IMG/VR virus record: IMGVR_UViG_2724678985_000012
Source of the DNA: a virus
Lineage: Duplodnaviria; Heunggongvirae; Uroviricota; Caudoviricetes
DNA length: 64,000 nt
Direction: 5' to 3' (one strand)
Under the pieces are notes generated by a model. The model saw only the letters and a program-made list of their open reading frames with translations. It did not search any database and was not told the DNA's origin. The position numbers and the translations under genes are program-made. The first letter of the stretch is position 1. Every line of letters starts with the position of its first letter. Shown one piece after another: positions 11,546 to 45,532 of the stretch.

Positions 11546-11546
11546 C

Positions 11547-11579
11547 AAAAAGCCCGCTTGGTATGGCGGGCTTCTTTTC
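11547..11579. terminator. Rho-independent terminator (bidirectional-like)
   Basis: AGCCCGC-ttggtatg-GCGGGCT followed by TCTTTTC, A-run upstream. Confidence 0.7.
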
Positions 11580-11796: not shown

Positions 11797-12160
11797 ACAA
11801 TCTACGTAACGTGTCGGCGACAGAAGATACAGATATCTCTCCGGTCGCAGCCCCTACGGTAAGGTCTGCCAGTTCAGGTGAATCAAATACCTGCACCCCG
11901 TTACGGCGTAGAAATAGCAGCGCACTGTTTAGCGCGGTACGCTTATTGGCATCATTGAATATATGCCCTCTCGCCGTAGCCACCAGGTAGGTGGCGGAGA
12001 CTTCGAAAAGGTCGGTGATCTCTTCGTAGGCAACTCTGGCCTGAACTCTCCCGATAATGGCCTCTGCCCTACCCGGATCTGACATGCCCGGCAGTCCGCC
12101 GTAGCGGCTTATATTCGCATCATGAAGCGCAATAAGTTCTTCCGGTGATATATGCCTCAT
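11780..12160 (-). CDS. doc: Doc toxin (Fic-fold kinase, death on curing)
   Basis: 126 aa, essentially P1 Doc as recalled ([22 protein letters not shown]...). Confidence 0.95.
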
Positions 12161-12381
12161 TATCGGTTAACCAGTTCCTTGTTGGTGGAATCCAGAGTGT
12201 CAAACAGAGATGCAAATTCGGCATCCAGCGCCGCTTTTTTGTAGGCTTCGAAAGTAGCCTTGCTGACAATTACTGCTGGCTCACGGCCTCTGCGGGTGAT
12301 TTCAACCTCTTCCCCGGCTTCAACATTGTTGAGCACTTCAGAAAAGTTGCCGCGCGCGGTACGGAAGTTAATGGATTGCAT
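12160..12381 (-). CDS. phd: Phd antitoxin
   Basis: [12 protein letters not shown]...ELVNR matches P1 Phd; ORF track adds two N-terminal residues (to 12387); stop overlaps doc start. Confidence 0.95.
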
Positions 12382-12453
12382 AAACACCTCGTGTACTCAT
12401 TATGTGTACACAATTATAAACCTCACAGGCATAAAGCACCAGCACTTTGCAGC

Positions 12454-12830
12454 TTAAATAACCGGACAATCATCAAACTCCCCACTTCGGGCATCATTGA
12501 TGACATGAGTGATCACACCAAAAACAGCATTACTTCCCGTGCATCCATCGTCATCTACTGGTAACGCCTCTTTCTTCCCGGTGCTTAAATCCTCCAGGTG
12601 CTGGCGCGGATACTTCCTGTATCTCTTTATGCGATATTCACCCTCCATAGCGCACACAAGCAGCGAACCATCAACTGGAGTAAGCGAAGAATCAACCACC
12701 AGCATATTCCCTCACGGTGATGGCTATCAGCTGCCCGCATGAAGTAGGTTGCTGATGGATGCCTGATTAGTTGCTGATCAAGAGAAATTCGGCTTTCAAC
12801 ATAATCCGCCGCAGGAGAAGGGAAGCCCAT
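12454..12830 (-). pseudogene. humD: humD (UmuD'-like S24 peptidase) interrupted by a frameshift
   Basis: N-terminal part (FPSPAADYVE...HPSATYFMRA) in ORF 12627..12830, C-terminal part (LVVDS...GEYRIKRY...VFGVITHV) in a different frame 12454..12705; about five residues missing at the junction. Confidence 0.6.
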
Positions 12831-12859
12831 AGCGTTTTCACCTCAATAATACTGTTCAT

Positions 12860-12879
12860 TTATACAGTATACATTAAAT
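12860..12879. promoter_or_regulatory. LexA box (SOS operator)
   Basis: TACTGTTCATTTATACAGTA fits CTGT-N8-ACAG, about 30 bp upstream of humD start. Confidence 0.65.
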
Positions 12880-13099
12880 GGACACCTTTGGTGCAAACGC
12901 GTTACGTACATCAACCACCGCTGATGATTTTGTGCTCTTTGCTACTATTCATCACCAACGGATCAGCGTAACCTCGTTGCCAATCAGTTAATAAGGAATT
13001 GGCTATGCCTAATCGCATTCCTCTCGATCCTGTATTGCCCAAAAATTTTGACTGCACTCCTAACGAGAAACATTTTAAAATAAAGCTCGCCGGTCATCA

Positions 13100-13456
13100 T
13101 TAACTCCTACATTCAGGGCAAGAGTTCCCTTCCGCAAAATAGGGGAAACTGCTATCAAGCTCATCACACCATCTGCGATGGTCGTAGCACCAAAACGCCT
13201 CCCACGGTACACGGAAATACTTCATCCACCAGGACACTCGATCAGGTATATCTGCTGGTGGCAGCTCTTCTGGCAATAATTTGCCTGATAATTCCCTTTC
13301 CGCCCGCGCCAGCATTCCTTTTAGACTCGCATTTTCTTTTTCAAGAATCTCTACGCGAGCCTGTAACTCAGCTTTCGTTGGCATGGCCCGCCTCATGTTT
13401 ATCAGCCACCAGCGGCAATAAAGCCTTAGCCATTTCATGAACCAACATGGCATCAA
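13100..13456 (-). CDS. Hypothetical protein (likely shorter, start near 13384-13396)
   Basis: 118-aa ORF overlapping upstream gene; coiled-coil segment then Cys/Trp-rich tail. Confidence 0.3.
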   Translation of the reverse strand: MMPCWFMKWLRLYCRWWLINMRRAMPTKAELQARVEILEKENASLKGMLARAERELSGKLLPEELPPADIPDRVSWWMKYFRVPWEAFWCYDHRRWCDELDSSFPYFAEGNSCPECRS

Positions 13457-14135
13457 TGACGCCTAGCGTATGGCCCGGCTTAATCTTTAATGCGGCCTCA
13501 AGATAGCCTCTTTCCAGAGTGGTTTTTACGCTTTTCCTAGGCGCTTGTTGGGAACCATCCGGAAGAACCGGATGGTTCCCAGCCTCATAAGCTACCCGCA
13601 ACCAGTGCATGAATGTTTCCGCAGACACACAACCGCAGTCCACATCGATTTCCCCGCGTTGCTGCTCCAGCCATTGCTCAAAATCTAACTTGTAAGCCTT
13701 ACTTTCAGACTTGACTTTCTGAGACGCTATGCGAGCTGCTTCATACTGTTCACGAGTGACAACCGATGTAAACGCACTGCGATCAAGGTCACTGATATCG
13801 CAAATAATGCCATCAATGGAATAATTCTTTGATGATTGGTAATTTTTATGGCGCGTACCAAAAAGAACCGTAGCGCGACTACTACCTGGCATCGTAATGG
13901 ATAGATGGCAAAAATCTTTTCCATCAGGCCATCCATGCCCCTTAGATAATTCCTTCACTAACAAGTCAATCAGTGTCATAGCTTTACCATCCTTGCAAGG
14001 CGCTAAAGCTATTTTGGCAAGTTCCAATACTTCATCTGCTGTGTATCCAGCACCGTGACCATACATTTCGATACGGGAAATAATATCTGAAATACGCTCT
14101 TTAGTGATTCTTGTCATAGTTTTATTTCCTTGCAT
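13368..14135 (-). CDS. Hypothetical protein
   Basis: 255-aa ORF in minus-strand accessory operon. Confidence 0.45.
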   Translation of the reverse strand: MQGNKTMTRITKERISDIISRIEMYGHGAGYTADEVLELAKIALAPCKDGKAMTLIDLLVKELSKGHGWPDGKDFCHLSITMPGSSRATVLFGTRHKNYQSSKNYSIDGIICDISDLDRSAFTSVVTREQYEAARIASQKVKSESKAYKLDFEQWLEQQRGEIDVDCGCVSAETFMHWLRVAYEAGNHPVLPDGSQQAPRKSVKTTLERGYLEAALKIKPGHTLGVIDAMLVHEMAKALLPLVADKHEAGHANES

Positions 14136-14323
14136 GGTTCGCCTTTACGGCAAACAGCTACACGGTCATTTCTTACATTAACCACAGTCACCGTTCCGTC
14201 ATCGCATTGAATAACGATGAAAGGGTGTTCATTCTCTTTTGTGCAATGTTGCTGTTCCCCTGCTGTAACAGTGAGGGGAATTAATAAAATAATAATTACT
14301 GCGAATTTACTAAATGTTGCCAT
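14114..14323 (-). CDS. Small secreted protein (signal peptide)
   Basis: 69 aa; N-terminal hydrophobic signal-like segment, four Cys. Confidence 0.3.
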   Translation of the reverse strand: MATFSKFAVIIILLIPLTVTAGEQQHCTKENEHPFIVIQCDDGTVTVVNVRNDRVAVCRKGEPCKEIKL

Positions 14324-14347
14324 AGCAATCTTTCTTTCTGTTTTTCA

Positions 14348-14641
14348 TTATGGTTGAATCCAGTTATCTTCAATAGCAATGCTTAATCTTTGTAACCATT
14401 CTGCTAATTTCAGCATTGCTTCTCTTTCGCTTAAACCACACGGAAAATCATCAAGCGATATTGTTGGCTTGAAGTTTCCTAAATTATCCATTTCGACGGT
14501 CAGATTTTGCTCCAGCACGGTATTTCTTACGCGGCTATTGTGCCGAAGCAAATATACTGAACGTGATTTATTGGTTTTGTGGTCGAAAGTATATTCGGTA
14601 AGTATCATCTGGCTTCCGCCATGATTATTACCGCGCCACAT
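14348..14641 (-). CDS. Hypothetical protein
   Basis: 97-aa ORF. Confidence 0.35.
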   Translation of the reverse strand: MWRGNNHGGSQMILTEYTFDHKTNKSRSVYLLRHNSRVRNTVLEQNLTVEMDNLGNFKPTISLDDFPCGLSEREAMLKLAEWLQRLSIAIEDNWIQP

Positions 14642-14664
14642 AATTACTCCGTGTTAATTGAAAT

Positions 14665-14967
14665 TTAGCTATTAATCTTCACTTTTATCGCGAACACCTT
14701 TACCGGTTTATCACCGAAGTGCGGATGTGTGATTGTTTTTATTTCATATCCGTTATACGGGACGTCAATTCTGCGACTGAAGTCTTCGCGCTTCGGATAT
14801 CCCTTTGTGATAATCAGGCGGTCATACTTACGGTTAACGAGGCGCTTATTCCAGTAGTCATTACACAGGCGATACTCTTCCGTTTTCTCCCCTCGAATCA
14901 TGGCATCGAAGTATTCACCTTTAACGGCAAGTTGCAGGTTAGCCATTACCTCACCTCCAGTCTCCAT
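14665..14967 (-). CDS. ASCH-like domain protein
   Basis: 100 aa; GEKTEEYR resembles ASCH GxKxxExR motif. Confidence 0.4.
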   Translation of the reverse strand: METGGEVMANLQLAVKGEYFDAMIRGEKTEEYRLCNDYWNKRLVNRKYDRLIITKGYPKREDFSRRIDVPYNGYEIKTITHPHFGDKPVKVFAIKVKINS

Positions 14968-15206
14968 ACCGCCTGACCAATCCGGCTGGCATGGGTATCT
15001 TTGGATACTGTTCCGTCTTTAGCCAGCTCCATAAGAATTTTGCGCAAATCTGCCGAACGCCATTCTTCATCAGGAAATTCCTTCTCCATTGCCAACCGCA
15101 GATTCCAGGTTGCCATCCTGAATGGATATTCCCCGCCGAGAGCTTTATCTTGCAGGGCAGCCCGGGAACGCATCACCTGCAAAACCTTCTCTTTTACATC
15201 CATCAT
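14946..15206 (-). CDS. Hypothetical protein
   Basis: 86-aa ORF, coupled to neighbours. Confidence 0.35.
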   Translation of the reverse strand: MMDVKEKVLQVMRSRAALQDKALGGEYPFRMATWNLRLAMEKEFPDEEWRSADLRKILMELAKDGTVSKDTHASRIGQAVWRLEVR

Positions 15207-15778
15207 TTCGCCTCCTGCGGCGGTTCCGGTAGCGGCATCCAGTGAGTTGCTTGCTCAATACCATTACCCGGCTTAATCGTTGCATCTCCGCGCCGAAAGG
15301 TGCTTCCGGTATAGCGTGCGGAGCATATTAGCGGTTCAACCAGAGAGCTATCGAAATTCACCGAAATAAGCACGTTCTGGTTCTTTTCAGGCATCCGCTC
15401 ACTACAGCTTATCCAACCATCCGGAGTTACCGGCACTGGCTGGGCGGTGTAAAGTGGAACAACTCGCCCTCCCCATTGCTTAACACTACTCTCAGCGAAC
15501 ACTAAATGCTCAGTCCGATAATACCCAGGGGCATCAATATCTTTTCTTTCGCTATCCCACATGTAAACCACCGGTTCTGCTTCCAGTGATGCCAGTGCAA
15601 TTCGTGCCAGCTCACGCACAACTTCAGGGGGCGCGTAACGGTCATTCAGGTCATCCCACAGGCGTAGCATGTTATCGCTACCAGGGTGAACATCCTCGTT
15701 AGTTCCGGCAAGCGCACTAATAACCTCATCGGCTGCTTCAATAATTTTCTGTGCCTGTTCTCTGGTAATAGTGGTCAT
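15203..15778 (-). CDS. Hypothetical protein with DUF551-like C-terminus
   Basis: 191 aa; C-terminal WISCSERMPE...THWMPLPEPP typical of lambdoid DUF551 proteins. Confidence 0.45.
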   Translation of the reverse strand: MTTITREQAQKIIEAADEVISALAGTNEDVHPGSDNMLRLWDDLNDRYAPPEVVRELARIALASLEAEPVVYMWDSERKDIDAPGYYRTEHLVFAESSVKQWGGRVVPLYTAQPVPVTPDGWISCSERMPEKNQNVLISVNFDSSLVEPLICSARYTGSTFRRGDATIKPGNGIEQATHWMPLPEPPQEAK

Positions 15779-16056
15779 TTGTTAATCCTTAAAACTTTAT
15801 GCCCTGGCGCAAAAGCACGTGTTTTGTCTTTGCTTATTCGCCAGCCATCCTTACGTGCCTCTTTTGCACAGCCAGCCCATGACGTACCGATATATTCACC
15901 GAAGTCTGGTACTGGATATACACCTTCCGTACACTGGCGGCAGTCACAATAGAGATGCATGGTGTAACTTGCGGCAATAGCCATATCACTCTCCTTTAGT
16001 ACGCAAGTGGTTTTTCCAGCGGTTTTGCGCCGCGCTGGGCTTTTTGCAAAAACCAC
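15775..16056 (-). CDS. Hypothetical Cys-rich small protein
   Basis: 93-aa ORF; competes with overlapping ORF 15986..16267. Confidence 0.3.
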   Translation of the reverse strand: MVFAKSPARRKTAGKTTCVLKESDMAIAASYTMHLYCDCRQCTEGVYPVPDFGEYIGTSWAGCAKEARKDGWRISKDKTRAFAPGHKVLRINK

Positions 16057-16160
16057 AATCCATCATCCCGTAATATTTCATCAACCCCATCCGTCGGTTG
16101 CTGAGTCTCACCCACTGCCAGACGCTAGGGGCGTTTCTACGAACTAACAGAATCTTTGCT

Positions 16161-16727
16161 TTACGGTTTTTCATCGTTTTGCTCTCCTGCGTCTCCTTTG
16201 ATGCAAATGCCAGCGACGCGTGGCACATTAACTTCCACGATGCGCACAGTTGGTTTGTACATCTCAATCGCTGTCAGCCAGTCAGCGCCGGTCATATGCT
16301 TTTCTGCATCGCCATTAGTCCATTGAACCGGCACACCAATAGCTTTCATCGCAATTTCTATTTCCCCGGCGATGGCGCTTTTTCCGCAACCAGTAAAACC
16401 AGAAACAACGACAAGAACTTCGCCTTTGGCTGGTTTTATTTCCCGTGCTTCCAGTTCTGCAATGCGCTTCTCTGCGGCTTCCAGCTCAACACGCAGCTTC
16501 CCTACCGTTAGCGCAATTTCCTCGTTCTCCTGGTCGCGGCGTTTGATGTATTGCTGGTTTCTTTCCCGTTCATCCAACAATGCCAGCGCGATATCTGGCG
16601 AAAAGTGCTTCATAAAATCGTTAAGCGCATTAATTCGCTGATCGAAAGGCATTACAGGTGCTTCACCAGCAATTTTTGTTTTTTCAGCGATTTCACGAAG
16701 TTTTTGATAGTCAATTTTGTTTGTCAT
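16161..16727 (-). CDS. Ead/Ea22-like coiled-coil protein
   Basis: 188 aa; coiled coil ELEAAEKRIAELEAR shared with two paralogs downstream. Confidence 0.45.
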   Translation of the reverse strand: MTNKIDYQKLREIAEKTKIAGEAPVMPFDQRINALNDFMKHFSPDIALALLDERERNQQYIKRRDQENEEIALTVGKLRVELEAAEKRIAELEAREIKPAKGEVLVVVSGFTGCGKSAIAGEIEIAMKAIGVPVQWTNGDAEKHMTGADWLTAIEMYKPTVRIVEVNVPRVAGICIKGDAGEQNDEKP

Positions 16728-17602
16728 ACCACTACCTCTTCGAATTTCAACTCCAATTGGTCACCCCAGATTTCACATGATTCGGAACACGAACCAGTAT
16801 CAAACCGCTTGGCCTGCACCATCGCCTGATACAAATTTCTGTAGTCGCTGTCGGCATACATTCTGGCAATCCCGTCAAGCGTCAGGTGACCACGGTACAT
16901 AACGTCTTTACCTGTTCTGCGATGACCATCCCTGACGTGTTTGCCTGTAACCAGTTCATTAAAAACCCGCATCAGACCAGGTTCGTCTTTACATGCAAGC
17001 CCCAGCTTTTGCGTTGACTTTTTGATGCAAAAAACACAGTTCCCGAGGTGCTCCGGGATTTGCAAATCAAAAGGTTGTTTTCGCCACCACCGAATAACAT
17101 CCGACTTATCAAAATCTGACAGTTCTGCAAGATACCGGACGCCCGGTTTCGGTTTCAGCCTACGGTGTTCGTCCGCACGAATACCCAGCCATGTGATGTA
17201 ATTCCCTCGCCCAAAATGGTCATCGCAATATTTCGTGAAAGGGGTGAGTTTTAGCCTGTCAGTACAGAACGCGCCGCCGATGTAAGGCGTACCGTACTTT
17301 TTAACCATGTCCATAAACGGTTTAAGCACCGGCATTCGCGTCTGAATATCCTTTGGTTCCCATTCCGTATAACCATTTGGCTGCCCAAGTTCTGGATTTA
17401 TATCGACCTGCAACACCGTTAGCGGTACGTTCCAGAACTTCACAACCTCACGAATAAAGCGATACGTCAGAGGATGTTCACAGCCGGTATCCATAAAAAT
17501 GAAATGGACGCTAGCGCCAGCTTTTCGCTGTGCTTCCATCAGATGAACGAGATAAGCCGATGTTCGTCCACCTGAAAAGCTGACAACTTGATGCATACTC
17601 AC
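16724..17602 (-). CDS. PAPS reductase-like (PP-loop ATP pyrophosphatase family) protein
   Basis: 292 aa; N-terminal SFSGGRTS PP-loop motif; common lambdoid accessory gene. Confidence 0.7.
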   Translation of the reverse strand: MSMHQVVSFSGGRTSAYLVHLMEAQRKAGASVHFIFMDTGCEHPLTYRFIREVVKFWNVPLTVLQVDINPELGQPNGYTEWEPKDIQTRMPVLKPFMDMVKKYGTPYIGGAFCTDRLKLTPFTKYCDDHFGRGNYITWLGIRADEHRRLKPKPGVRYLAELSDFDKSDVIRWWRKQPFDLQIPEHLGNCVFCIKKSTQKLGLACKDEPGLMRVFNELVTGKHVRDGHRRTGKDVMYRGHLTLDGIARMYADSDYRNLYQAMVQAKRFDTGSCSESCEIWGDQLELKFEEVVV

Positions 17603-17605
17603 GGT

Positions 17606-18298
17606 TTATTCCTGAACGCGCTTAAACTCGATTACCCATACCCACGGGTTAGATAGCCAGTTATCCTGCCCGTAAATACTGCGCCAGATATCACCAAAAC
17701 CAACGCGATAAACAGCTTCCGGCGGCGTAATTTTGTACATCGCCGGAGATGCGCCTTCTGCTTTAGCATCTGCCTCGCTCATATCACGCAGCCGTTCCAC
17801 ACGCACGTCGGTAATTTCCAGCAAAATACGCGAAGCCCAGCGCGGCATGTGAATTGATGGACGCCACCCGCCATCAAACTTTTCATTCACAGTGTGAGGT
17901 TTCCAGTCGACATCATCGGGTATCGACCACAAACCGTAATCACCAGGCTTTTGCTCACAACTGGCCCGATAAATCCTTGCTGCGTTCTTCTCATCGCCAC
18001 GACAAAGGTTGTCGTTCCAGTCCACACTGCAACCATCCTCATTGCCTAATATCGCCCACGCCTCACGGACCCATATGCGATCACCAACGTTACCGAACGG
18101 GCATAAACCATGTTCAGGTGCATCCATAACGTGGGTATAGACACCATTGCGTTTCTTTGTCGGTTTACGGATAACTAGGCAGTTATCGGCCCTGACATTT
18201 TTTACAGGTCGGCGAGTCTGCGTCTTCCTTCCTTCGAGGATGGCCCTGACCATCTCATCGTTAAAAATCATCCCGCGTTCTTTCATTTTTTGATCCAC
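17606..18298 (-). CDS. ASCH-like domain protein
   Basis: 230 aa; N-terminal ILEGRKTQTRR motif. Confidence 0.4.
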   Translation of the reverse strand: MDQKMKERGMIFNDEMVRAILEGRKTQTRRPVKNVRADNCLVIRKPTKKRNGVYTHVMDAPEHGLCPFGNVGDRIWVREAWAILGNEDGCSVDWNDNLCRGDEKNAARIYRASCEQKPGDYGLWSIPDDVDWKPHTVNEKFDGGWRPSIHMPRWASRILLEITDVRVERLRDMSEADAKAEGASPAMYKITPPEAVYRVGFGDIWRSIYGQDNWLSNPWVWVIEFKRVQE

Positions 18299-18302
18299 CT
18301 CA

Positions 18303-19298
18303 TCAGTTATTGAACGTGATCACTCCGCGCTCGATGGCGAAGTCAAAAAGCTGGTTAGCGGCTACGTAAAGGCGTATGCCATGTGCTTTTTCCCATGCCC
18401 GAACATCGTTTTCTGCGCTTCTGGCGCAGTCATCGCAAAGAGGAACAGCCCAGCGGTCGTGTTCGTTTAACGAGCGGGCGCGGTACATGAACGGGTGGTT
18501 AACTTTGCCACCGCATCCGATGCACGGACGAGAAACCACAAACCGGAGATAAGCCGGGCTTTTACCGAGGACCGCTTTTGGTCGGCGCATATAAAGCAGG
18601 CCGGAATCCTCATCTACAGACAGGTTGACGATCTGCTCTGCGGTTATGTCCACCAGCTCGCGGGTACTGTGCTCCCAGGTGATATCTGATTCTTTCAGCG
18701 TACCGGTAGGGATTTCAGTTTTTGGCTGACAAAATGCAATGCGACCAGCTTCATCAGGCAGTTCGTCTTTAAGATTCCGGCGAATGGCCCAAAAGGTGAG
18801 TTCAACCATGCTCAGATCGCGATCCGGCGGAAGTTTTAACTCGCTGGCAGCCCAGTTCATAATCCAGTTGGCGCGATTCCGTGACAGTTGGTCTTCCAGC
18901 TTGCCGTATCCCTTCATCATGTATTCCGCATCATGCTTCCAGCACAGGCGAACGGCAGAACCGTTATAGAAATGGGTGGTTAGCTGGTGGCTGCAATCGC
19001 GCTTATCATGCGCCTGGCAATCGTGAATGTTGGTGCTAACCCAGTGAACGAGAGAATCCTCACCACCTAACGCGTTAAATACACGCTCACTTTGAAAAAA
19101 GGGTGCCAGTGACTGGTTGGCAACCAGTGAATAATTCAGGTCAACGACACCATCAGGGGTGTTTTCAGCCTGTTCACGCGGCAATGGGGATATAAGAAAA
19201 CGGCGTCCTGCGCCGATGTAATTGCTGGTGGGCTTATCTACAGGAAAGACAGCCACACCAGTTTCATTTACGACATATGGGGTGATTATTGCACTCAT
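18303..19298 (-). CDS. DUF968-like Cys-rich prophage protein
   Basis: 331 aa; C-terminal CIGCGG...CDDC cluster typical of lambdoid nin-region proteins. Confidence 0.45.
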   Translation of the reverse strand: MSAIITPYVVNETGVAVFPVDKPTSNYIGAGRRFLISPLPREQAENTPDGVVDLNYSLVANQSLAPFFQSERVFNALGGEDSLVHWVSTNIHDCQAHDKRDCSHQLTTHFYNGSAVRLCWKHDAEYMMKGYGKLEDQLSRNRANWIMNWAASELKLPPDRDLSMVELTFWAIRRNLKDELPDEAGRIAFCQPKTEIPTGTLKESDITWEHSTRELVDITAEQIVNLSVDEDSGLLYMRRPKAVLGKSPAYLRFVVSRPCIGCGGKVNHPFMYRARSLNEHDRWAVPLCDDCARSAENDVRAWEKAHGIRLYVAANQLFDFAIERGVITFNN

Positions 19299-19340
19299 AA
19301 TGCATACCGACTCTGTTTTGTTCCGATCGGTAAAATAATA

Positions 19341-19355
19341 TGTTAGAAAACTAAA
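19341..19355 (-). promoter_or_regulatory. C1-type operator-like site (reverse orientation)
   Basis: TGTTAGAAAACTAAA, exact reverse complement of the motif; second partial copy at 19361-19368; upstream of minus-strand operon starting 19298. Confidence 0.5.
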
Positions 19356-19396
19356 ATCAATGTTCTAACGTGATTTTGAGTGCGTAAATGATTTGA

Positions 19397-20089
19397 TCAG
19401 ACTTTAAGCTGCCCTCCCTTCACCTGCATTAGCGTCAGATTTCCGCAAAAAACCGCGCCCGTGTCTATGTAGTGCTGATTCCAGTATGCTTTTGGTCTTC
19501 GTACCGGTGTGTGCCCAAAGATAAAGCGATCTGCGCCTGTGATTTCTCCACCAATGCCATCTATCGAATCACCGACGCGACTGCGCGACCAGACAACATC
19601 AAAAAGCGACACATCCTTACCGAACTGGTACTCTCCACCTGGATAGTCGGCATGGGCTATAACGATAGTTTCATGCCCGGCGTTCAACTCAATGATATAT
19701 GGCAGACGCTTTACCAGCTCCACCAGCGCCTTGGCTAATATTTCCTGATCAGTGTCCAGCATGAAGAACCATTGTCCGCCATTCATTAGCCAGTTATTCA
19801 CGTTGCCATCAGGACTTAACGCATCAAGCATCAACCGCTCATGGTTCCCCATTACTGCCCTGAACCAGGGCATCTGCAATAGTTCCAGACATTCGACATT
19901 TTCAGTACCGCGATCGATAAGGTCGCCAACCGATATCAGTAAATCCTGCGCCGGGTCAAAATCCACACGATGGAGTTCGGACATCAGTCTGGTGTAGCAA
20001 CCATGCAGATCACCAACAACCCATATGTTTCTATAGCCAGAACCATCAATACGGCTATATAAATTCACTTCATGCAGAGCCTGGGTCAT
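19397..20089 (-). CDS. Ser/Thr protein phosphatase (lambda NinI / PrpA-like metallophosphatase)
   Basis: 230 aa; GDLHG, GDLIDRG, GNHE motifs. Confidence 0.8.
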
Positions 20090-36988: not shown

Positions 36989-37639
36989 ATGGTGAGTCTT
37001 TGTGATTTCACGGGGAAAATGGTCGCCCCCTGGCTGGAGCATGGTATAGATGCTGTTATCGTCGATCCACAACACGCAGAGACCAGAGATGAGCTGATGC
37101 AATCAGGCGCAGTTCTGACACGTATCAGTGCGATTATCGATAGTGATGAAGTTTATGCTTTTCTCCGAAATAATTTACAACGTATTGTGTTTTTAGCTGG
37201 TTTTCCGCCGTGCACGGACCTTGCTGTTTCCGGTGCGCGCTGGTTTGCGCATAAGGCTGACAAAGATCCGTTTTTCCAGTTCAAAGCGATGCAGGTCGTC
37301 TGGCAGTGTTACGATATTGCAAAGATGATTGGTTGCCCGTACATGATTGAAAACCCGGTCAGCCAAATATCGACATTCTGGCGTAAACCTGATCACATCT
37401 TCCATCCTTACCACTTCACTGCATATTGCAAGGAAGACAATTACACCAAAAAAACATGCCTCTGGAGCGGGCAAGGCTTTGTCATGCCTGATGCCCTAAT
37501 GGACGAATCATTAGGCAAGCCAGATAACAGAATCCATACCGCGCCACCTGGACCTGAAAGGGCTAATTTTCGAAGTGCTACTCCGCATGGATTCGCAAAG
37601 GCAGTTTTCGAAGCGAATAAGGGGGTGCTCTATGAGTAA
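36989..37639 (+). CDS. Short C5-cytosine DNA methyltransferase-like protein
   Basis: about 217 aa from MVSLCDFTGK; motif I-like DFTGKM, motif IV GFPPC, motif VI ENPV; no obvious target-recognition domain. Confidence 0.4.
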   Translation: MVSLCDFTGKMVAPWLEHGIDAVIVDPQHAETRDELMQSGAVLTRISAIIDSDEVYAFLRNNLQRIVFLAGFPPCTDLAVSGARWFAHKADKDPFFQFKAMQVVWQCYDIAKMIGCPYMIENPVSQISTFWRKPDHIFHPYHFTAYCKEDNYTKKTCLWSGQGFVMPDALMDESLGKPDNRIHTAPPGPERANFRSATPHGFAKAVFEANKGVLYE

Positions 37640-38537
37640 ATCTATAGCAAGCATAGCCATAAAAAAACAGGATACGATGGCTGAAATTAGCTATATGCGC
37701 ACCATTCGGACTCCGGATGAATATGAGCGCCCGATCTTCAAATGGGTAGGCGGTAAATTCTCAGAGTTGCCTACAGTGCTTGAGCATCTACCACACGGCA
37801 AGCGGTTAATAGAACCATTCGTTGGTGGCGGTTCCGTATTTACAAATGCAGGATTTCACCACAACCTGCTTAATGATATTAACGGTGACCTGATTAACTT
37901 CTATCAGACATTGCAGCGAGAAGGACATTCGCTCGTCACGCTGTCATATAGTTTTTTCCAAAATTACAACAACGCTGACGCTTACCTCGAAGTGCGTGAG
38001 GCATTTAACAGAGGAAAGTATGACCAGCTACATCATGCTGCCGCCTTTTTGTACCTTAATCGGCACTGTTTTAATGGCGTAACGCGGTACAACCAAAATG
38101 GCGAGTTCAACGTGGGGTATGGCAAATACAAAGCGCCCTACTTCCCACATGCAGAGATGGAGGCATTTTTGGCTGATGACGTACTCAAAAACACGTCCTT
38201 TGTATCAGGTGACTTTGCTGGCGTCATCGAGGCGGCTGGTGAAGGCGATGTGATTTTTTGCGATCCGCCGTATGAACCGCTGCCGGATACAGAAGGGTTT
38301 ACCAGTTATTCAGGAAATAGCTTCCGTTTCGACGAACAGAAACGGCTGGTATCTCTATTGGTGGAAGCCCACCAGCGCGGCGCTAAGGTAGTGATAACAA
38401 ATAGTGGTGCGCCAAACATCCGTGAACTATATGAAGGAAACGGGTTTAAAGTACATCATATGGCAGCCAGACGGTCGGTTTCCTGCAAGGCGTCAACACG
38501 TGTAGTTGCTAACGATATAATTGCGATAATGAAGTAA
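37632..38537 (+). CDS. dam: Dam-family N6-adenine (GATC) DNA methyltransferase
   Basis: 302 aa from MSKSIAS; FKWVGGK, FVGGGSVF, NRHCFNG, CDPPYEP motifs; alignable with E. coli Dam. Confidence 0.85.
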   Translation: MSKSIASIAIKKQDTMAEISYMRTIRTPDEYERPIFKWVGGKFSELPTVLEHLPHGKRLIEPFVGGGSVFTNAGFHHNLLNDINGDLINFYQTLQREGHSLVTLSYSFFQNYNNADAYLEVREAFNRGKYDQLHHAAAFLYLNRHCFNGVTRYNQNGEFNVGYGKYKAPYFPHAEMEAFLADDVLKNTSFVSGDFAGVIEAAGEGDVIFCDPPYEPLPDTEGFTSYSGNSFRFDEQKRLVSLLVEAHQRGAKVVITNSGAPNIRELYEGNGFKVHHMAARRSVSCKASTRVVANDIIAIMK

Positions 38538-38569
38538 AAAACGCCGCAGTAGCGGCGTTTACTTTTTTA
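38538..38569 (+). terminator. Rho-independent terminator after dam
   Basis: AACGCCGC-agta-GCGGCGTT followed by TACTTTTTT. Confidence 0.7.
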
Positions 38570-38585
38570 TGTGGCGAAATACCTA

Positions 38586-40247
38586 TTAACCTAACTTCGC
38601 CCAGGTATCACGCAGCCCAACGGTGCGGTTAAATACCGGTTTTTCCGCCGTGGAATGGCGGCTGTCGAGGCAGAAATAACCTTCACGCTCAAACTGGAAT
38701 GCTTTACCCGCTACCGCTTCTTTCAGCGACGGTTCAGCAAAGCCCTGTTTGATCACCAGCGATTCCGGGTTAATCACCGACAGGAAATCATCCGCAGCAC
38801 CTGGGTTCGGTACACTGAACAGACGGTCGTACAGGCGAATTTCAACCGGCAGCGCATGGGCCGCGCTTACCCAGTGGATAACGCCTTTCACTTTACGACC
38901 ATCTGCCGGATCTTTGCTTAAAGTATCGGCATCGTAGGTACAGAAGATGGTGGTGATATTGCCTTCGGCATCTTTCTCCACGCGTTCAGCCTTAATGACG
39001 TAAGCATTACGCAGACGCACTTCTTTACCCAGCACCAGACGTTTGTACTGCTTGTTAGCTTCTTCGCGGAAATCGGCGCGGTCGATCCAAATCTCACCGC
39101 TAAACGGCACCTGACGGCTACCCATTTCCGGTTTGTTTGGATGGTTCGGCATGGTGACCATTTCGCCTTCGCCCTGGTAGTTTTCGATAACCAGTTTCAC
39201 CGGATCGATAACCGCCATTGCGCGCGGGGCATTTTCGTTGAGATCTTCACGGATGCAGGATTCCAGCGACGCCATCTCAATGGTGTTGTCCTGCTTGGTC
39301 ACGCCGATGCGTTTGCAGAACTCACGAATAGAAGCAGCAGTGTAACCACGACGACGCAGACCGGAAATGGTCGGCATACGCGGGTCATCCCAGCCTTCAA
39401 CGTGCTTGTCGGTTACCAGCTGGTTCAGCTTACGCTTGGACATCACGGTGTATTCCAGATTCAGGCGCGAGAATTCGTACTGGCGCGGATGAACAGGAAT
39501 GGTGATGTTGTCCAGTACCCAGTCATACAGACGACGGTTGTCCTGGAACTCAAGCGTACACAGAGAGTGCGTAATACCTTCCAGCGCATCGCTGATGCAG
39601 TGGGTGAAGTCGTACATCGGGTAGATGCACCACTTGTTGCCAGTCTGGTGGTGTTCAGCAAACTTAATACGGTACAGCACCGGGTCGCGCATCACGATAA
39701 ACGGCGAAGCCATGTCGATTTTCGCACGCAGGCAGGCTTTACCTTCTTCAAAACCACCGGCACGCATTTTTTCGAACAGCGCCAGGTTCTCTTCAACGCT
39801 GCGGTCGCGGTACGGGCTGTTTTTACCCGGCTGCGTCAGGGTGCCGCGGTATTCGCGGATCTGTTCCGGCGTCAGTTCGTCAACATACGCCAGTCCTTTG
39901 TTGATCAGTTCAACAGCATAGGCATGGAGTTTGTCAAAATAATCGGAGGAGTAACGGATGTTGCCAGACCAGTGAAAACCTAACCATTCAACGTCGTTTT
40001 TAATCGACTCGACGTACTCGATATCTTCTTTTACCGGGTTAGTGTCGTCGAAACGCAGGTTGCACTGGCCTTTATAGTCCTGGGCGATCCCGAAGTTCAG
40101 GCAGATAGATTTCGCATGACCAATATGCAGATAGCCATTCGGTTCCGGCGGGAAACGGGTATGTACTGTGGTGTGCTTACCACTGGCCAGATCTTCATCG
40201 ATGATCTGACGAATAAAGTTAGTCGGGCGGGCTTCTGCCTCACTCAT
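38586..40247 (-). CDS. glnS: Glutaminyl-tRNA synthetase, near-identical to enterobacterial chromosomal GlnS
   Basis: 553 aa; HIGH and VMSKR motifs; differs from E. coli GlnS (as recalled) at only a few positions. Confidence 0.95.
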
Positions 40248-40407
40248 TGTGGATTCCTCAAAGCGTAAACAACGTATAACAGCGTATGATCTTATAAGCC
40301 GAATAGGCTGACAACCACTAGTTGATTAGAAATTGCTTTCTATCGTTATTTCAATAATGAGCTTTTTCATGAAGCCCACTTTTGCGCATAAGTAAATTAA
40401 TGAAAAA

Positions 40408-40482
40408 TGGTACACAATTGGAACCAAAAAGGATGTAAAGGTACACCAAATTAGTGGTGTATTGGTGCACCTTTGGTTCAAG
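40408..40482. repeat. Repeat cluster (GGTACAC, TTGGAACCAAAAAGGATGTAAA, near-palindrome GGTGTATTGGTGCACC)
   Basis: AAAGGATGTAAA plus GGTACA block recurs at 44408-44428. Confidence 0.4.
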
Positions 40483-40515
40483 ACTTTTTAAGTTCTAAAA
40501 CCAACCTGAAAGACT

Positions 40516-40803
40516 TTATTTTGCTTCTTCAGACTCCGCTAACATGAGGATAGCATGGCGGATCATATTCAATTTGCTGCGATTATGCTTTTTACTTAAC
40601 GCATCAAGTACCTGGTACTCGTATTCATTGAAACCAACACGAATAGATTTAAAATCACGTGGAGCGTCCTTATCGAGCACTTTGTTGTCTTCTGGTTGCT
40701 CACCCGGCACCAAATCAGCCTTACTTGCAAAATCCTCAATTCGGCGTTCAAGATCGGGGTCTTTTACTTCGGGGGCTTTTACCGATTTACGAGGCTTAAT
40801 CAC
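40516..40803 (-). CDS. ParG-like small centromere-binding partition protein
   Basis: 95 aa, downstream of and overlapping parA; basic N-terminus, RHH-like C-terminus. Confidence 0.5.
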   Translation of the reverse strand: MIKPRKSVKAPEVKDPDLERRIEDFASKADLVPGEQPEDNKVLDKDAPRDFKSIRVGFNEYEYQVLDALSKKHNRSKLNMIRHAILMLAESEEAK

Positions 40804-41437
40804 TTAATAACTCCTTAACCAACATCTGGATTTCACCTTTAGCTTTCCCGTTGTCCATCTCAACAACGCCCTTCCCTTCAGCCATGCAATCGCGGTAAAC
40901 CTTACGATCACGAATGATGGTTTTCAGCAACTTCAGTTGCGGATATTCAGCCAGGTACTCTTTGGCCTCATTGGTTTCATTCACAACCGGATTGGATGGG
41001 GCCATTGTTAAGACTGCGAACGCCTTAATGCTAGGATTAGGCATCAGGTCCAAAGCCTCTTCAAACACTTCAACAAAGTGTGCCAGCGTGTCTAAATCTG
41101 GTTGAGATGGTCTGAATGGGACCAACACAATATCTGCAGCGGTTATGCCTGTACGCATCTCTTTGCTATCGCGCCCGGCTGTATCAACAACAACAAATTC
41201 ATAACGCTTATCCAGATCGAGAAGTGTTTCTCGAATATTACCAAACTTCTGGACACAATGAATAACAGGAGAAACCTCTGCCGTGTTACGGTCAGCTGCC
41301 CAGCGGGCAGCTGTTCCTTGCTTGTCTGCATCTAGTAACACTACATCCTTATTTGCGCGGGCAAGCTCCGCACAGATGTTTACGCTTGTGGTTGATTTTC
41401 CACAGCCACCTTTTTGGCTGACTACCAATATAATCAT
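40796..41437 (-). CDS. parA: ParA/ParF-type partition ATPase
   Basis: Deviant Walker A KGGCGKST; start taken at MIILVVSQKGG (ORF track extends to 41467). Confidence 0.8.
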   Translation of the reverse strand: MIILVVSQKGGCGKSTTSVNICAELARANKDVVLLDADKQGTAARWAADRNTAEVSPVIHCVQKFGNIRETLLDLDKRYEFVVVDTAGRDSKEMRTGITAADIVLVPFRPSQPDLDTLAHFVEVFEEALDLMPNPSIKAFAVLTMAPSNPVVNETNEAKEYLAEYPQLKLLKTIIRDRKVYRDCMAEGKGVVEMDNGKAKGEIQMLVKELLSD

Positions 41438-41467
41438 ATCCGTTCCTCGGTGTGATTTTGGTATCAA

Positions 41468-41670
41468 AACGGTTCCAGATAAGAGCCTTCTTGATGCGGG
41501 ACAGGCTCTATAATGGAGTCATGAATGTTTGGCAAAGTATAACATCAATCAGACCAAATACACCTTATATTGCATCCTATTTAACACGAAATCAGCCCCA
41601 AATTGGAACCAGATACAAAATTGCATCATAACAGCACCTAACTGGTTCCAGATTAACACCAATTAGACAC
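41468..41670. repeat. Centromere/operator-like repeats GG(T/A)(T/A)CCAGAT upstream of parA
   Basis: GGTTCCAGAT at 41471, GGAACCAGAT at 41605, GGTTCCAGAT at 41644. Confidence 0.4.
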
Positions 41671-41724
41671 CATTAAGGCATAAAAAAGGCTGCAATTTGC
41701 AGCCTTAAACCAGCACATTTTCTG

Positions 41725-42069
41725 TCAATCAGGTAGAGAGTCAGCCAGATTGCGCGCCGACGCGCTTTTGGCAACAACTTGCTCCTTCACTGGCTCAATG
41801 GAGGCAGGGCGCTCCTCAACCGCAGCTGGTAGTTCCAGGAAGGATGCCAGCATTTTTCGGATCAGCTCCGGGTTATTGTCTTCGGTCAGCAGGGAAGCCA
41901 GTAATCCTGGAAGCCTGCTATCGACTTCTCCCAGCGCAAGCCCTGCCAACAATGCGGTTCTTGCCATATCGCTATGTTTTTTTATCTTCTCGCTCGCCGC
42001 CTTTTCATTGGCATAAGCCTCTGGGCGAAGATAAATCATCACTTTCTTACGTTCCTGAGACATGGACAT
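41725..42069 (-). CDS. parR: ParR-like centromere-binding protein
   Basis: 114 aa immediately downstream of parM. Confidence 0.5.
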   Translation of the reverse strand: MSMSQERKKVMIYLRPEAYANEKAASEKIKKHSDMARTALLAGLALGEVDSRLPGLLASLLTEDNNPELIRKMLASFLELPAAVEERPASIEPVKEQVVAKSASARNLADSLPD

Positions 42070-42076
42070 TACCTCG

Positions 42077-43057
42077 TTAACCGATTGCTTTCAGGCCATG
42101 AACAAGAGCAAGTTGCGGGTCATCCGCCACGAAGAAACGGTCATCACGAATATTAACTTGCTCGCGAATTGCATCTGCCACCAGCGGTGCGCCACCACCG
42201 ATCACCATGACATGCGTATATCCTTTAAAGTCGCCAATCACATCAAGAACGCGGGTACGCAGACGGTCAATGCTTGCGGCAATGGCCTTTTTCACATCAC
42301 CAATCGCTGATGGGTCATTGATATTGTCGTTCAGATAATCTTCATCGTGGCGGTTAATAATGAGCTGATCAACATTGTAATTTGACGTTTCGGTATTGGC
42401 CCTTGCAAGTGCTTGCCTTACTTCCCTGGTGACCAGTGATACACCAAGATTCGAATCGCCAAAAACACGGGAAACTGCCGTCATTTGCCCGGCGACCATT
42501 GAAACATCAAGGGTAGTTCCACCCAAATCGACGATAAGAACAGAATGGGCAGGGTTCAGATTGTCGCACAGGCCAATTCCTGCCGGAATAGACTCCGGTC
42601 GTACCGTAACTTTCTTAATCGTGAACACATTGCCTTTATTCAGCGTGACGGGGCGCATAAGACTGGCTTTCTTGCGCTCGATGTTATCGAGATTGTATTG
42701 CGCGTCGTCGTCGTAAAACTCCGCCAGAGGCAGCGTGACCACAATTTCTACTTCCTGCGGCTCAATGCCACTTGTCAGCAGGGCATGGTGAACAGCCAGG
42801 ACGTTAAGCGGGCTGTATTGCCATTCCACATTATTCGTCGGCAGAACATCTGGCGATATCAAGTCGTATGAATACTTTTCGTCGTCAATGACATAGTTAA
42901 ACGGCTTGCCAGCACCAAATGTTGCTGACCATCCGCGCTTAAAGCTGTTAGGACTGATGTGAGTGCGAGTTTCCCCGTCGTGCTCCCACAGCATTTTGAT
43001 ATTGGTTGAACCATCATCGATAAAAATGCGCATCTTCTTGCTCCACTTCTGAGACAC
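42077..43057 (-). CDS. parM: ParM/StbA actin-like segregation ATPase
   Basis: MRIFIDDGSTNIK actin-fold phosphate-1 motif; probable start at 43033. Confidence 0.85.
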   Translation of the reverse strand: MSQKWSKKMRIFIDDGSTNIKMLWEHDGETRTHISPNSFKRGWSATFGAGKPFNYVIDDEKYSYDLISPDVLPTNNVEWQYSPLNVLAVHHALLTSGIEPQEVEIVVTLPLAEFYDDDAQYNLDNIERKKASLMRPVTLNKGNVFTIKKVTVRPESIPAGIGLCDNLNPAHSVLIVDLGGTTLDVSMVAGQMTAVSRVFGDSNLGVSLVTREVRQALARANTETSNYNVDQLIINRHDEDYLNDNINDPSAIGDVKKAIAASIDRLRTRVLDVIGDFKGYTHVMVIGGGAPLVADAIREQVNIRDDRFFVADDPQLALVHGLKAIG

Positions 43058-43058
43058 A

Positions 43059-43215
43059 TTTGAGAATCAAAATGTAATTTTAAAAGAGAAGCACCCAAAA
43101 ATCCACACCAAACGAGACAAAAAAAGAGCGCTTGTTGAGTTTATTTTGAGAATATCTTAATCACCCACTGAATGATGGCCTGATAGTGAGATTTATTTGA
43201 GAATGAATTGAGAAT
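43059..43215. repeat. parC-like centromere iterons (TTTGAGAAT)
   Basis: Copies at 43059, 43145, 43196 and 43207 upstream of parM. Confidence 0.5.
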
Positions 43216-43300
43216 ACAAAAATATTCCGAAATTTAACTCTCCGTTTGAATGACGAAATAACAAAGTGATGACAATAGGAGGATAACCAGGAGGTGAAGA

Positions 43301-43585
43301 ATGAGCGCAATAGCCACCAGCGACACCCTTTGTTCTGGTCACGGAGGATTTCCGCCGCGACTGGTAGCTGAAACCGTTCCCTGGTTCACCGTTAACGGTA
43401 AGCCAGTTGTTGTAGATGGTGCCATGTTTCCCAGTCACACTGACGGTAACAGTGCACACCCAGGGGCAGCTGTATCGACGCGAGTATGGTTTTCGATAGG
43501 TGGAAAGGGAGTTGTCTGTGTAGGCGATCCGCTTTCTTGTGGTTCTGTTATCGCCAACGGCGAGGATATTTTTCAGGTTGCATAA
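43301..43585 (+). CDS. PAAR-like spike-tip protein
   Basis: 94 aa; Gly/Cys/His-rich beta-rich sequence with HPGAA motif; AGGAGG RBS. Confidence 0.45.
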   Translation: MSAIATSDTLCSGHGGFPPRLVAETVPWFTVNGKPVVVDGAMFPSHTDGNSAHPGAAVSTRVWFSIGGKGVVCVGDPLSCGSVIANGEDIFQVA

Positions 43586-44388
43586 TGCTTGATTCAATAG
43601 GTGAAGTTAAAGCCTTCAAAATTCTGTCAGATGCCGGTATCTCTACACCAGAATCTATAACCATAAGCCGGGCAGCTTCTGTAAAAGCCTCATCGCTCGC
43701 CAGCGCCATACAGGGAATAGTTCACGCCGATAAAACCTATCCTGATTCTGTTTCGGCCTGGACTACTCAATTGCTTGGCTTTTCTGAACAGCTCAATGAG
43801 GCCAGCAAAGCGTCTTCATTACTGGCTGATTCTCTTTCCCCATACACCAAGCCATCAGAGCTGTTACAGATGAAGATTGGCTGGGAATGCTACGCAAAAG
43901 GTAACGAGCTGACCCCCATACCTGCTTTCGCCCTTGTTGAGGGAATGGGGAATGTTTCCATTCCGCAATCTCTAACGGACGCATTGACGGCGCTAAAACT
44001 TGATGCTCTGAAAACCGCCATGAACGCCATTAACGCAAAAATTGAAGCTGCCGGAAGTGCTGGTGGTGATAGCAATGGTGGGCAGGGTGGTACTGGGGGC
44101 GCTCAGGCTCCAGTCATTACTCAGGATGAAATTGATGCTTTACGGGAAGCAGTGACAGCCGCCGAAGTTTTACTCTCCGAAATTAACTCAGCAAGTGAGA
44201 GTGTCGTAGCCCTTGCAGGTCGCATTAAAACGTCAACCACTCAGGCAACCAAAGGTTTAGAGAACGCTGTCGCCATCACGTTAACTGGTTCTCTACTGGA
44301 TGATGCAGTAATGAGTCCGGCAATCAGTTTAATCATGCCACAAGGCGTTATCGACGCACTCCAAACGAACACCAAAAAGGAACCATAG
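43585..44388 (+). CDS. Hypothetical protein
   Basis: 268 aa from MLDSIGEV; start overlaps PAAR stop (TAATG). Confidence 0.4.
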   Translation: MLDSIGEVKAFKILSDAGISTPESITISRAASVKASSLASAIQGIVHADKTYPDSVSAWTTQLLGFSEQLNEASKASSLLADSLSPYTKPSELLQMKIGWECYAKGNELTPIPAFALVEGMGNVSIPQSLTDALTALKLDALKTAMNAINAKIEAAGSAGGDSNGGQGGTGGAQAPVITQDEIDALREAVTAAEVLLSEINSASESVVALAGRIKTSTTQATKGLENAVAITLTGSLLDDAVMSPAISLIMPQGVIDALQTNTKKEP

Positions 44389-44446
44389 CAACACCACTTA
44401 GGAACACAAAAGGATGTAAATTGGTACATGTTTAACACCAAAAAAA

Positions 44447-44920
44447 ATGAACCTGAAGAGGATGGTTTTGAAAAAGATAATTTTGATTGTAATTGCGCTT
44501 TTAGCCATTTCTGGAATTTACCGAACAACGACGGCAGTTATCGAACACATCAGGTATGTCCGATCGCTTGAAGACTCAAAATCACAACTGGAAAGCACGA
44601 ACAACACGCTTTCTACCGCATTACAGTTAAGTGAGAACGCTCGCTCAGCCATGCTGACCGAAAACGAAAGAATTAAAGCACTGGAAAAGGAGTACCAGCG
44701 CAAAACAGCAGAACTGAATGCCAACCTAATCAAACAACGGGAGGAAAGCCAGAATGAAATCACTCGCCTTGAAAATGCGTTACGCCGTGCTGGGATTAAC
44801 GATGTGCGTGTGCCTGATGACGTTATCAGGATGCAGCGGGAACGGGCAAAAGCCATCAACCAGCGTGCCAGTGAAAATTACCGTAGAAGCCACCAGCAAG
44901 CCGCAGGCAAATCTGATTGA
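44447..44920 (+). CDS. Rz-like inner-membrane spanin
   Basis: 157 aa; N-terminal TM anchor then coiled coil. Confidence 0.55.
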   Translation: MNLKRMVLKKIILIVIALLAISGIYRTTTAVIEHIRYVRSLEDSKSQLESTNNTLSTALQLSENARSAMLTENERIKALEKEYQRKTAELNANLIKQREESQNEITRLENALRRAGINDVRVPDDVIRMQRERAKAINQRASENYRRSHQQAAGKSD

Positions 44921-45086
44921 TTACTCCCCTTGTTTAGTGCCAGAAGACACGCCAGTGCTGTTAAACAAGTATCCGACATACGCTGAACAGCTATTCAGCA
45001 CGATCGACGAATGCAACCAACGAAACGCACTGAATAACCAAAGAAACAGGGAGATTTGGGAAGGGAAGGGGGATCAAGGCTCCTGA
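44775..45086 (+). CDS. Rz1-like outer-membrane lipoprotein spanin, embedded in +1 frame of Rz
   Basis: Lipobox LSGC, Pro-rich; overlaps the 3' half of Rz ORF. Confidence 0.55.
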   Translation: MRYAVLGLTMCVCLMTLSGCSGNGQKPSTSVPVKITVEATSKPQANLIDYSPCLVPEDTPVLLNKYPTYAEQLFSTIDECNQRNALNNQRNREIWEGKGDQGS

Positions 45087-45532
45087 AGCCAGATGTCCTG
45101 GCTGTCAGCTTCTTCGAAACCGTGACAGACGTTAAAGTCACTCAAACGATACTGACGCTGACGGCCCCTATTTCGCTCATGCCAATGCATATATCCACCA
45201 GCAAATGCCAGCGGACAATCGCTATAGTCTATGTAACCAATACCATTCCCCAAACGTGCTTCGCGCGCACCAGCTTTCCAGGACAGTAGAAAAGAGTCAC
45301 GATCCGCCAGCATAACAACAAAATCGTCCGGATCTCCGATACAGTGAAGAATACCTGCCTTACATAACTGCTTGAGCGCTTTTGACTGGCTCAGGATGTC
45401 TTCTCCGTAATACTGAAAACAATCATCAACAACAGCGGGATAGCCTGCCGGGGGATTCAGGCTGGTTGGTATAGCTGACGCGATCGCCAGCATTAAGCGA
45501 TATTGTGTTTTTGATGGGTTAACGTGACTCAT
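45074..45532 (-). CDS. Hypothetical protein
   Basis: 152-aa ORF. Confidence 0.4.
   Translation of the reverse strand: MSHVNPSKTQYRLMLAIASAIPTSLNPPAGYPAVVDDCFQYYGEDILSQSKALKQLCKAGILHCIGDPDDFVVMLADRDSFLLSWKAGAREARLGNGIGYIDYSDCPLAFAGGYMHWHERNRGRQRQYRLSDFNVCHGFEEADSQDIWLQEP

Follow-up and report, generated by a model that had tools for sequence, protein, structure and literature searches.

A canonical glutaminyl-tRNA synthetase gene on a D6-like phage-plasmid: an apparently old capture patched with host alleles

Why should a temperate phage that persists as a plasmid carry a near-copy of an essential housekeeping gene of its host? The question is posed by glnS, encoding glutaminyl-tRNA synthetase (GlnRS), in the IMG/VR virus record IMGVR_UViG_2724678985_000012, the whole 64,000-nucleotide (nt) stretch of which is called the window below. 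The element is a D6-like (P1-related) phage-plasmid, and that D6-type phage-plasmids carry glnS is already known: orf62 of phage D6 (ASR76354.1) is annotated 'glutaminyl-tRNA synthetase, similar to E. coli GlnS', and a 2019 paper (PMC6799933), which credits the first observation in D6 to Gilcrease & Casjens 2018, reports the gene in all D6-like genomes. The answer considered probable here is that a canonical GlnRS gene was copied once from an Escherichia-type chromosome, gives a second, element-linked supply of the enzyme in the plasmid-prophage state, and is overwritten patchwise by host alleles. New with respect to the accessible literature are the limits of the captured piece, the arguments against its recent capture from E. 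coli, the mosaic conversion that runs one way, the presence/absence unit, and the negative results for loss of the host copy and for integration.

The gene, its product and the captured piece

The original prediction, made from the letters of the DNA, took the gene for an intact host-type glnS carried as phage-plasmid cargo, and an Escherichia-type glnS it is. The product scores 1068.7 bits against the glnS equivalog profile TIGR00440 of NCBIfam, where the cutoff is 425.8, with profile positions 1-524 of 524 matched, and its alignment with crystallised E. coli GlnRS (PDB 1o0b, 1gtr and 1qtq) runs over the full length. Both class I aminoacyl-tRNA synthetase (aaRS) motifs that had been pointed out, HIGH at residue 41 and VMSKR, the KMSKS equivalent, at residue 268, are intact, and the handful of expected differences from E. 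coli GlnS comes to five substitutions relative to the K-12 protein (V97I, Q106K, I112V, L276Q and D510E) and a changed C-terminus, which reads AKLG before the stop instead of AKVGE. The substitutions are confined to naturally variable columns: none of the 226 columns that are invariant across 80 gammaproteobacterial chromosomal GlnRS sequences is altered. Inactivating mutations had been allowed for, and none was found in the intact open reading frame (ORF). By these marks the plasmid glnS is a functional-looking, ordinary canonical GlnRS gene.

Phage D6 (MF356679) covers all of window 43000-64000 at 98.5% identity, the 17.6 kb around glnS is syntenic with D6, and the pac/c1 region of the window is 98.8% identical to D6 record AY753669. 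The closest glnS-bearing plasmids are approximately 90-95 kb, non-mobilizable and, where checked, of rep_cluster_1704. As predicted, the gene is flanked by dam with its terminator on one side and by partition genes on the other, the chromosomal neighbours nagE and chiP being absent. Assembly chimerism, the caveat attached to that arrangement, is excluded because more than 110 plasmids, assembled independently, and the D6 genome, which came from virions, all have the same glnS junctions.

Homology to the Escherichia chromosome extends from some 70-95 nt before the ATG to roughly 20 nt beyond the stop codon, leaving the chromosomal repetitive extragenic palindromic (REP)/terminator sequence, nagE and chiP outside the captured piece. 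Within it the promoter region is collinear with that upstream of chromosomal glnS. Both promoter hexamers are kept in D6, in pTB423 and in a divergent Escherichia fergusonii plasmid, the last of which also keeps the hairpin shared by dam and glnS, and hexamers and ribosome binding site (RBS) are kept even in lineages where the surrounding spacer has diverged beyond recognition. For a transposon or insertion sequence signature there are only short chance-level repeats in 38300-40700, and the neighbours are dam and partition genes with no mobility genes among them. Repression of the chromosomal gene is lifted in dam mutants and when the Dam sites of its promoter are mutated (Plumbridge & Soll 1987, cited and reproduced by RNA-seq in PMC12369378), and the GATC in the -10 hexamer is known to mediate this repression; by analogy with the chromosomal promoter, the plasmid copy may be under Dam control as well. 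Its promoter GATC lies some 1.7 kb away from the element's own Dam-family methylase gene (37575-38537).

Age of the capture and the mosaic of plasmid alleles

Near-identity of the protein had suggested a recent capture, and here the original prediction fails. That near-identity is due to extreme purifying selection on GlnRS, of which even the E. coli and E. ruysiae versions are just 3 residues apart. The synonymous divergence (dS) of the window gene from three E. coli chromosomal alleles is 0.166-0.197; E. coli alleles differ from one another by 0.05-0.07, and E. coli differs from E. ruysiae by 0.256. By nucleotide identity the allele is firmly of Escherichia type: E. coli and E. ruysiae reach 95-96%, and Salmonella, Citrobacter, Enterobacter and Klebsiella 84-88%. 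In a scan of species-representative GlnRS sequences E. ruysiae was the sole further Escherichia species among the matches listed, and it was considered as donor and rejected: its protein is 99% identical in amino acids, yet at 95.2% nucleotide identity its gene is no closer than that of E. coli.

A 211-nt block dense in plasmid-type variants (window 39798-40008) was sought with up to 8 mismatches allowed. It is present in 67 E. coli records, all of them plasmids, and in none of approximately 5,428 chromosomal copies, which together with the dS values means that the donor was not a sampled E. coli. The 5′ and 3′ junctions of glnS are identical in D6, pTB423 and pEF-4 and therefore point to a single capture event, and the lineages with these common junctions are deeply diverged, their neighbouring parA-like gene having a dS of about 1.1-1.2. 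On this evidence the capture is old, single and from something other than a sampled E. coli chromosome.

The gene has not been left as it came. A table of variable sites in 21 plasmid or viral-contig copies and 5 chromosomal copies reveals chromosomal-type blocks embedded in plasmid-type sequence. In D6 and in pYU39_89, a Salmonella plasmid, 31 of the 33 informative sites ahead of nt 827 agree with the window, and of the 35 beyond it 31 agree with K-12 (Fisher p=1e-12 for a breakpoint near nt 827, with 62 breakpoints tested), and breakpoints in other copies have p values from 1e-10 to 8e-3, uncorrected for the roughly 54-63 breakpoints tested. By the Hudson-Kaplan bound, the plasmid copies have undergone at least 38 recombination events (Rm). 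A polishing artefact is an unlikely source of the mosaic because the same pattern is present in virion-derived D6 and in pYU39_89. Between the window and D6 the dS of glnS, 0.11, exceeds the 0.02-0.07 of backbone genes, and between the window and pTB423 or pEF-4 it is, at 0.23-0.27, far below that of the adjacent parA-like gene; the latter fits homogenisation towards Escherichia chromosomal alleles, exchange of the module between plasmids, or both. The flow of alleles appears to be one-way, from chromosome to plasmid, no movement in the other direction being detected with the 211-nt block among the E. coli chromosomal copies.

One plasmid copy deserves separate mention. In pEF-4 (NZ_CP137859.1) of E. 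fergusonii, private synonymous variants are numerous in the glnS at 2501-4165, and its product is 554 aa long and ends in AKVEG, which suggests conversion by the E. fergusonii chromosomal allele.

So pervasive a conversion is also what a passenger without any benefit might undergo: glnS could have been captured by chance and be kept intact by gene conversion from the selected chromosomal copy, while toxin-antitoxin modules retain the plasmid. The GC content at third codon positions (GC3) agrees with this, since at 0.61 it is host-like and without drift towards the 0.46 +/- 0.06 of the element's other ORFs, as expected under re-import of host sequence, and a selfish element was among the possibilities raised in PMC6799933. 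The copies in Salmonella hosts, though, are intact too, and there a chromosomal gene with no more than about 84% identity should be a poor template for repair; moreover, conservation of promoter hexamers and RBS amid unrecognisable spacer is not what a passenger would be expected to retain. This neutral explanation is a serious rival, though on balance an unlikely one, and is taken up again below with the distribution of the gene.

That recombination with the chromosome demonstrably occurs favours yet another possibility, in which the 1.7 kb of chromosome-like DNA is a portable homology handle for integration or exchange at host glnS. Metagenome contig OFLS01000123.1 (45,166 nt; locus 1017-11635) seems to supply an instance, joining a chromosomal fldA-fur-chiQ-chiP flank (98.1% identical to K-12) to a glnS that is mostly plasmid-type with a chromosome-type C-terminus and, beyond it, to plasmid orf61, parA-like, stbB and parM genes (98.4% identical to window 38590-45337). 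The switch at gene nt ~1590-1605, however, is right before a 56-nt stretch identical in both replicons, the last that they share, as expected of an assembly chimera, and a de Bruijn-graph chimera is the probable explanation; were the contig genuine, it would be the first integrated D6-like element, and the glnS locus might occasionally serve as an integration site. Against a handle there is also the result that 0 of 101 partition-region matches in complete E. coli genomes are chromosomal, there is the lack of the plasmid-type block from the E. coli chromosomes, and there is the intact ORF, promoter and RBS, for which a handle has no need. For E. coli isolates the idea is largely refuted, and as a general explanation it is extremely improbable.

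What a second GlnRS might do

In the explanation preferred here, glnS would have been copied a single time, out of a chromosome of Escherichia type, into the spacer that separates dam from the partition genes, as a tight single-gene piece with its own sigma-70 promoter, a GATC in the -10 hexamer and an RBS, and its transcription would end at the hairpin terminator that it has in common with dam. Because it is located at the end of a co-directional array of plasmid-maintenance genes, the housekeeping promoter captured with it would most likely drive its expression while the element persists as a plasmid prophage, and the lysogen would gain GlnRS beyond what its intact chromosomal gene supplies. 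The benefit may be insurance or a boost of Gln-tRNA charging in lysogens, including those of non-E. coli hosts such as Salmonella. With an identity to the host gene that remains at about 96%, the plasmid copy is open to RecA-type homologous recombination, which repeatedly replaces patches of it by host chromosomal sequence, with the consequence that every plasmid allele is a mosaic. In PMC6799933 a role in host fitness or plasmid maintenance was proposed, by analogy with the plasmid cysS of Salmonella Typhimurium D23580.

How common and how constant the gene is was assessed in PLSDB plasmids and in 5,426 complete E. coli genomes. A survey of related phage-plasmids, as had been recommended, finds full-length glnS on 113 PLSDB plasmids, with E. 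coli, Salmonella, Shigella and E. fergusonii as hosts, and finds about a fifth of the partition-region relatives without it; the frequency of the phage-plasmid in the complete E. coli genomes is approximately 1.5-2% (81-101 of 5,426). The synonymous against non-synonymous comparison with chromosomal glnS that had likewise been proposed gives a dN/dS of 0.02-0.03, with synonymous changes prevailing. Across all comparisons with the window the ratio is 0.013-0.034, within 21 plasmid copies it is 0.024, and low-frequency variants private to plasmids are 30 synonymous and 3 non-synonymous.

Among the approximately 113 full-length plasmid copies there is no credible pseudogene (a frameshift candidate, NZ_CP027382.1, is left out of this statement), which counts against the neutral explanation. 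Three unannotated plasmid copies look frameshifted, and the two examined, NZ_CP031917.1 and CP042632.1, were rejected as pseudogenes: their scattered 1-nt indels are mostly at CCWGG (Dcm) motifs or a homopolymer and are likely sequencing errors. Indels at CCWGG in sparsely annotated plasmid records are a typical long-read basecalling error at methylated sites and call for caution before a pseudogene is declared.

Relatives without the gene are viable and common, as the neutral explanation would have it, and their existence means that glnS is dispensable for the phage-plasmid lifestyle. In the close relative pPSS-08-1_2 (NZ_AP027678.1) an unrelated 158-nt spacer replaces a unit of hairpin, glnS, promoter and upstream spacer, between flanks that are 90.7% and 97.4% identical to those of the window, and in NZ_CP085065.1 and NZ_LR890273.1, also without glnS, the dam-to-orf61 spacer is about 135 nt; the spacers of these glnS-less relatives are unrelated to window sequence, so that none of them offers a clean empty site for comparison. 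The presence of glnS does not follow backbone relatedness, since the parA-like gene and orf61 of glnS-less NZ_LR890273.1 are 92-94% identical to those of the window and those of glnS-bearing pTB423 and pEF-4 only 70-84%.

Several of these observations weigh against a beneficial second supply and have to be set beside it. Roughly one in five plasmids with a related partition region do without the gene; the low dN/dS is partly inherited from the donor and from imported host sequence and so is no clean proof of selection after capture; a raised demand for glutamine is not seen, with 3.8% Gln across 49 ORFs of the element; and ARAGORN finds no tRNA-Gln, the cognate partner, in the 64-kb window. 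The sole tRNA there, at 1333-1408, had been suggested as a partner for the enzyme, a suggestion that does not survive its classification by ARAGORN as tRNA-Met (CAT). In P1 a CAU-anticodon tRNA is considered to be a lysidine-modified tRNA-Ile, and the identity of the window tRNA may thus differ from the ARAGORN call; under either identity it is no partner for GlnRS.

Absence of tRNA-Gln and unraised glutamine usage tell equally against a role in counter-defence or lytic growth, in which extra GlnRS would shield against a factor that targets GlnRS or tRNA-Gln charging, or would boost charging during phage replication. Translation buffering and counter-defence had been put forward, as inference, in the original prediction. 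No defence directed at GlnRS is known to us. Since the plasmid GlnRS is the same as that of the host at all conserved positions, it would be equally sensitive to an inhibitor. The promoter is the housekeeping one and not a recognisable phage promoter. A P1 C1-type operator consensus has no match with 3 or fewer mismatches in the window, which is uninformative as to lysogenic or lytic control. In favour, aaRS and other translation genes are known from large phages. Several tRNA genes are present on D6-like elements (PMC6799933), with pYU39_89 carrying Asn, Thr, Ser and Met tRNAs (PMC6799933). Overall such a role is decidedly improbable. Scarcely better are the chances of a selected device that goes beyond dosage, whether as a Dam-tuned takeover of the regulation of charging or as protection against a factor directed at GlnRS or tRNA-Gln, with the locus as a conduit of exchange.

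The location of glnS inside a plasmid-maintenance module, and the analogy with plasmid cysS of S. Typhimurium D23580 drawn in PMC6799933 from Canals et al. 2019, raise the prospect of an addiction device, in which the essential function passes to the plasmid copy, the chromosomal one falls silent or disappears, and loss of the plasmid becomes lethal. A glnS match covering at least 80% of the gene is present in 5,425 of the 5,426 complete E. coli genomes, at 5,428 chromosomal places and 81 on plasmids, so that at most a handful could lack the chromosomal gene. Strain KOr024, which has a D6-like plasmid, retains a chromosomal glnS that encodes the K-12 protein and has the K-12 sequence in the 200 nt upstream, and ongoing conversion from chromosome to plasmid requires an intact co-resident chromosomal copy. 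Judged by gene and promoter sequence, the host glnS appears to be retained beside that of the plasmid, and addiction is improbable.

With these alternatives weighed, the preferred reading of a second, element-linked supply of GlnRS is narrowed to a canonical enzyme, an old single capture, a host copy that is kept, and no integration through glnS in complete E. coli genomes. There are few cases in which a temperate phage-plasmid stably keeps an essential housekeeping gene in a form close to that of the host, and the D6-type gene is one of them. Its locus records gene conversion from chromosome to plasmid and so is a natural marker of recombination between phage-plasmids and their hosts, and the mosaic may be usable for reconstructing the past hosts of a given plasmid.

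Surrounding features and comparison with known systems

Table 1. Positions in the window of glnS, its signals and the features around it
Feature	Position	Strand	Remarks and basis
D12-class N6-adenine DNA methyltransferase gene (dam/dmt-like)	37575..38537	+	Convergent with glnS; PF02086, E=2e-56; D6 orf63 annotation
Presence/absence unit, 1,993 nt	38525..40517		Hairpin, glnS, promoter and ~270 nt of upstream spacer; blastn of pPSS-08-1_2 against the window
Bidirectional intrinsic-terminator hairpin AAACGCCGC-AGTA-GCGGCGTTT	38539..38560		Common to convergent dam and glnS; two-strand terminator scan
Escherichia-chromosome homology, approximate extent	38563..40340	-	Alignments with K-12 and E. ruysiae; boundaries +/- ~25 nt
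glnS coding sequence	38586..40247	-	ATG-start ORF, 553 aa, canonical GlnRS
Shine-Dalgarno GAGGAA	40254..40259	-	6 nt before ATG; same as chromosomal leader
Native sigma-70 promoter of glnS	40286..40314	-	-35 TTGTCA at 40314-40309, 17-nt spacer, -10 GATCAT at 40291-40286; promoter scan
GATC (Dam site) within -10 hexamer	40288..40291		Read from sequence
Plasmid-maintenance genes orf61, ParA-type ATPase, stbB, parM/stbA	40516..43057	-	Co-directional with glnS; Pfam PF13614/PF01656; D6 and RefSeq annotations

In the interval that separates the glnS promoter from the end of orf61, at ~40405-40480, there are iterated GGTGCACC and GGTACAC-type motifs, with a hairpin GGTGTATTGGTGCACC at 40456-40471 among them, that might serve the ParA-type/orf61 partition pair as centromere or operator; glnS-less relatives have different repeats at the same place. 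At the other end of the window, 1-25000, D6 in one place covers only 46%, parts (~11600-20023) match P1 and RCS47 at 94-95%, and 552 phage records, approximately 220 of them of Stx-converting phages, match some part, all of which points to a mosaic accessory region that is variable between D6-like elements.

The nearest comparison for the gene is chromosomal glnS of E. coli, with which it shares enzyme family, length, promoter, leader, RBS and the GATC in the -10 hexamer. The chromosomal gene is located between nagE and chiP with its REP/terminator, in contrast to the window copy, which is on a phage-plasmid and has no such sequence. Relationship to D6 orf62 and to glnS of pYU39_89 is closer still, the locus, the junctions and the neighbours (dam/dmt on one side; orf61, parA-like, stbB and stbA on the other) all being the same, and the difference is allelic only: these two have a K-12-like 3′ half from about nt 827 where the window has a plasmid-type one, and D6 is without the L276Q of the window copy. 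The window gene shares 97.5% nucleotide identity with D6; with plasmids such as CP058021.1 the figure reaches 99.9%.

Other plasmids may have acquired glnS separately. The Enterobacter ludwigii plasmid NZ_CP116349.1 (133.6 kb), otherwise unrelated, has its own glnS at 4001-5668, with dinQ, a large SNF2-related gene and two genes for site-specific integrases around it; at 86.7% identity to the window, with an Enterobacter chromosomal copy at 86.3%, it looks like an independent capture. One further IMG/VR contig with a 'viral' GlnRS was rejected as host DNA on account of its fimbrial-gene flanks.

The cysS of pBT1 in S. Typhimurium D23580 (Canals et al. 2019 via PMC6799933) is likewise an essential aaRS gene duplicated on a plasmid and proposed to be a maintenance device. 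There the chromosomal copy is strongly down-regulated (PMC6799933), whereas for D6-like elements chromosomal glnS is present in essentially all genomes and, in the one pair compared, is intact with an unchanged promoter.

Farther away, huge or jumbo phages and giant viruses, with genomes of more than 200 kb, have divergent aaRS genes together with large sets of tRNA and other translation genes. What they have in common with the window element is a translation enzyme borne by a virus; the D6-like case, with no cognate tRNA in the window, is that of a single, nearly host-identical gene on a 92-kb temperate phage-plasmid.

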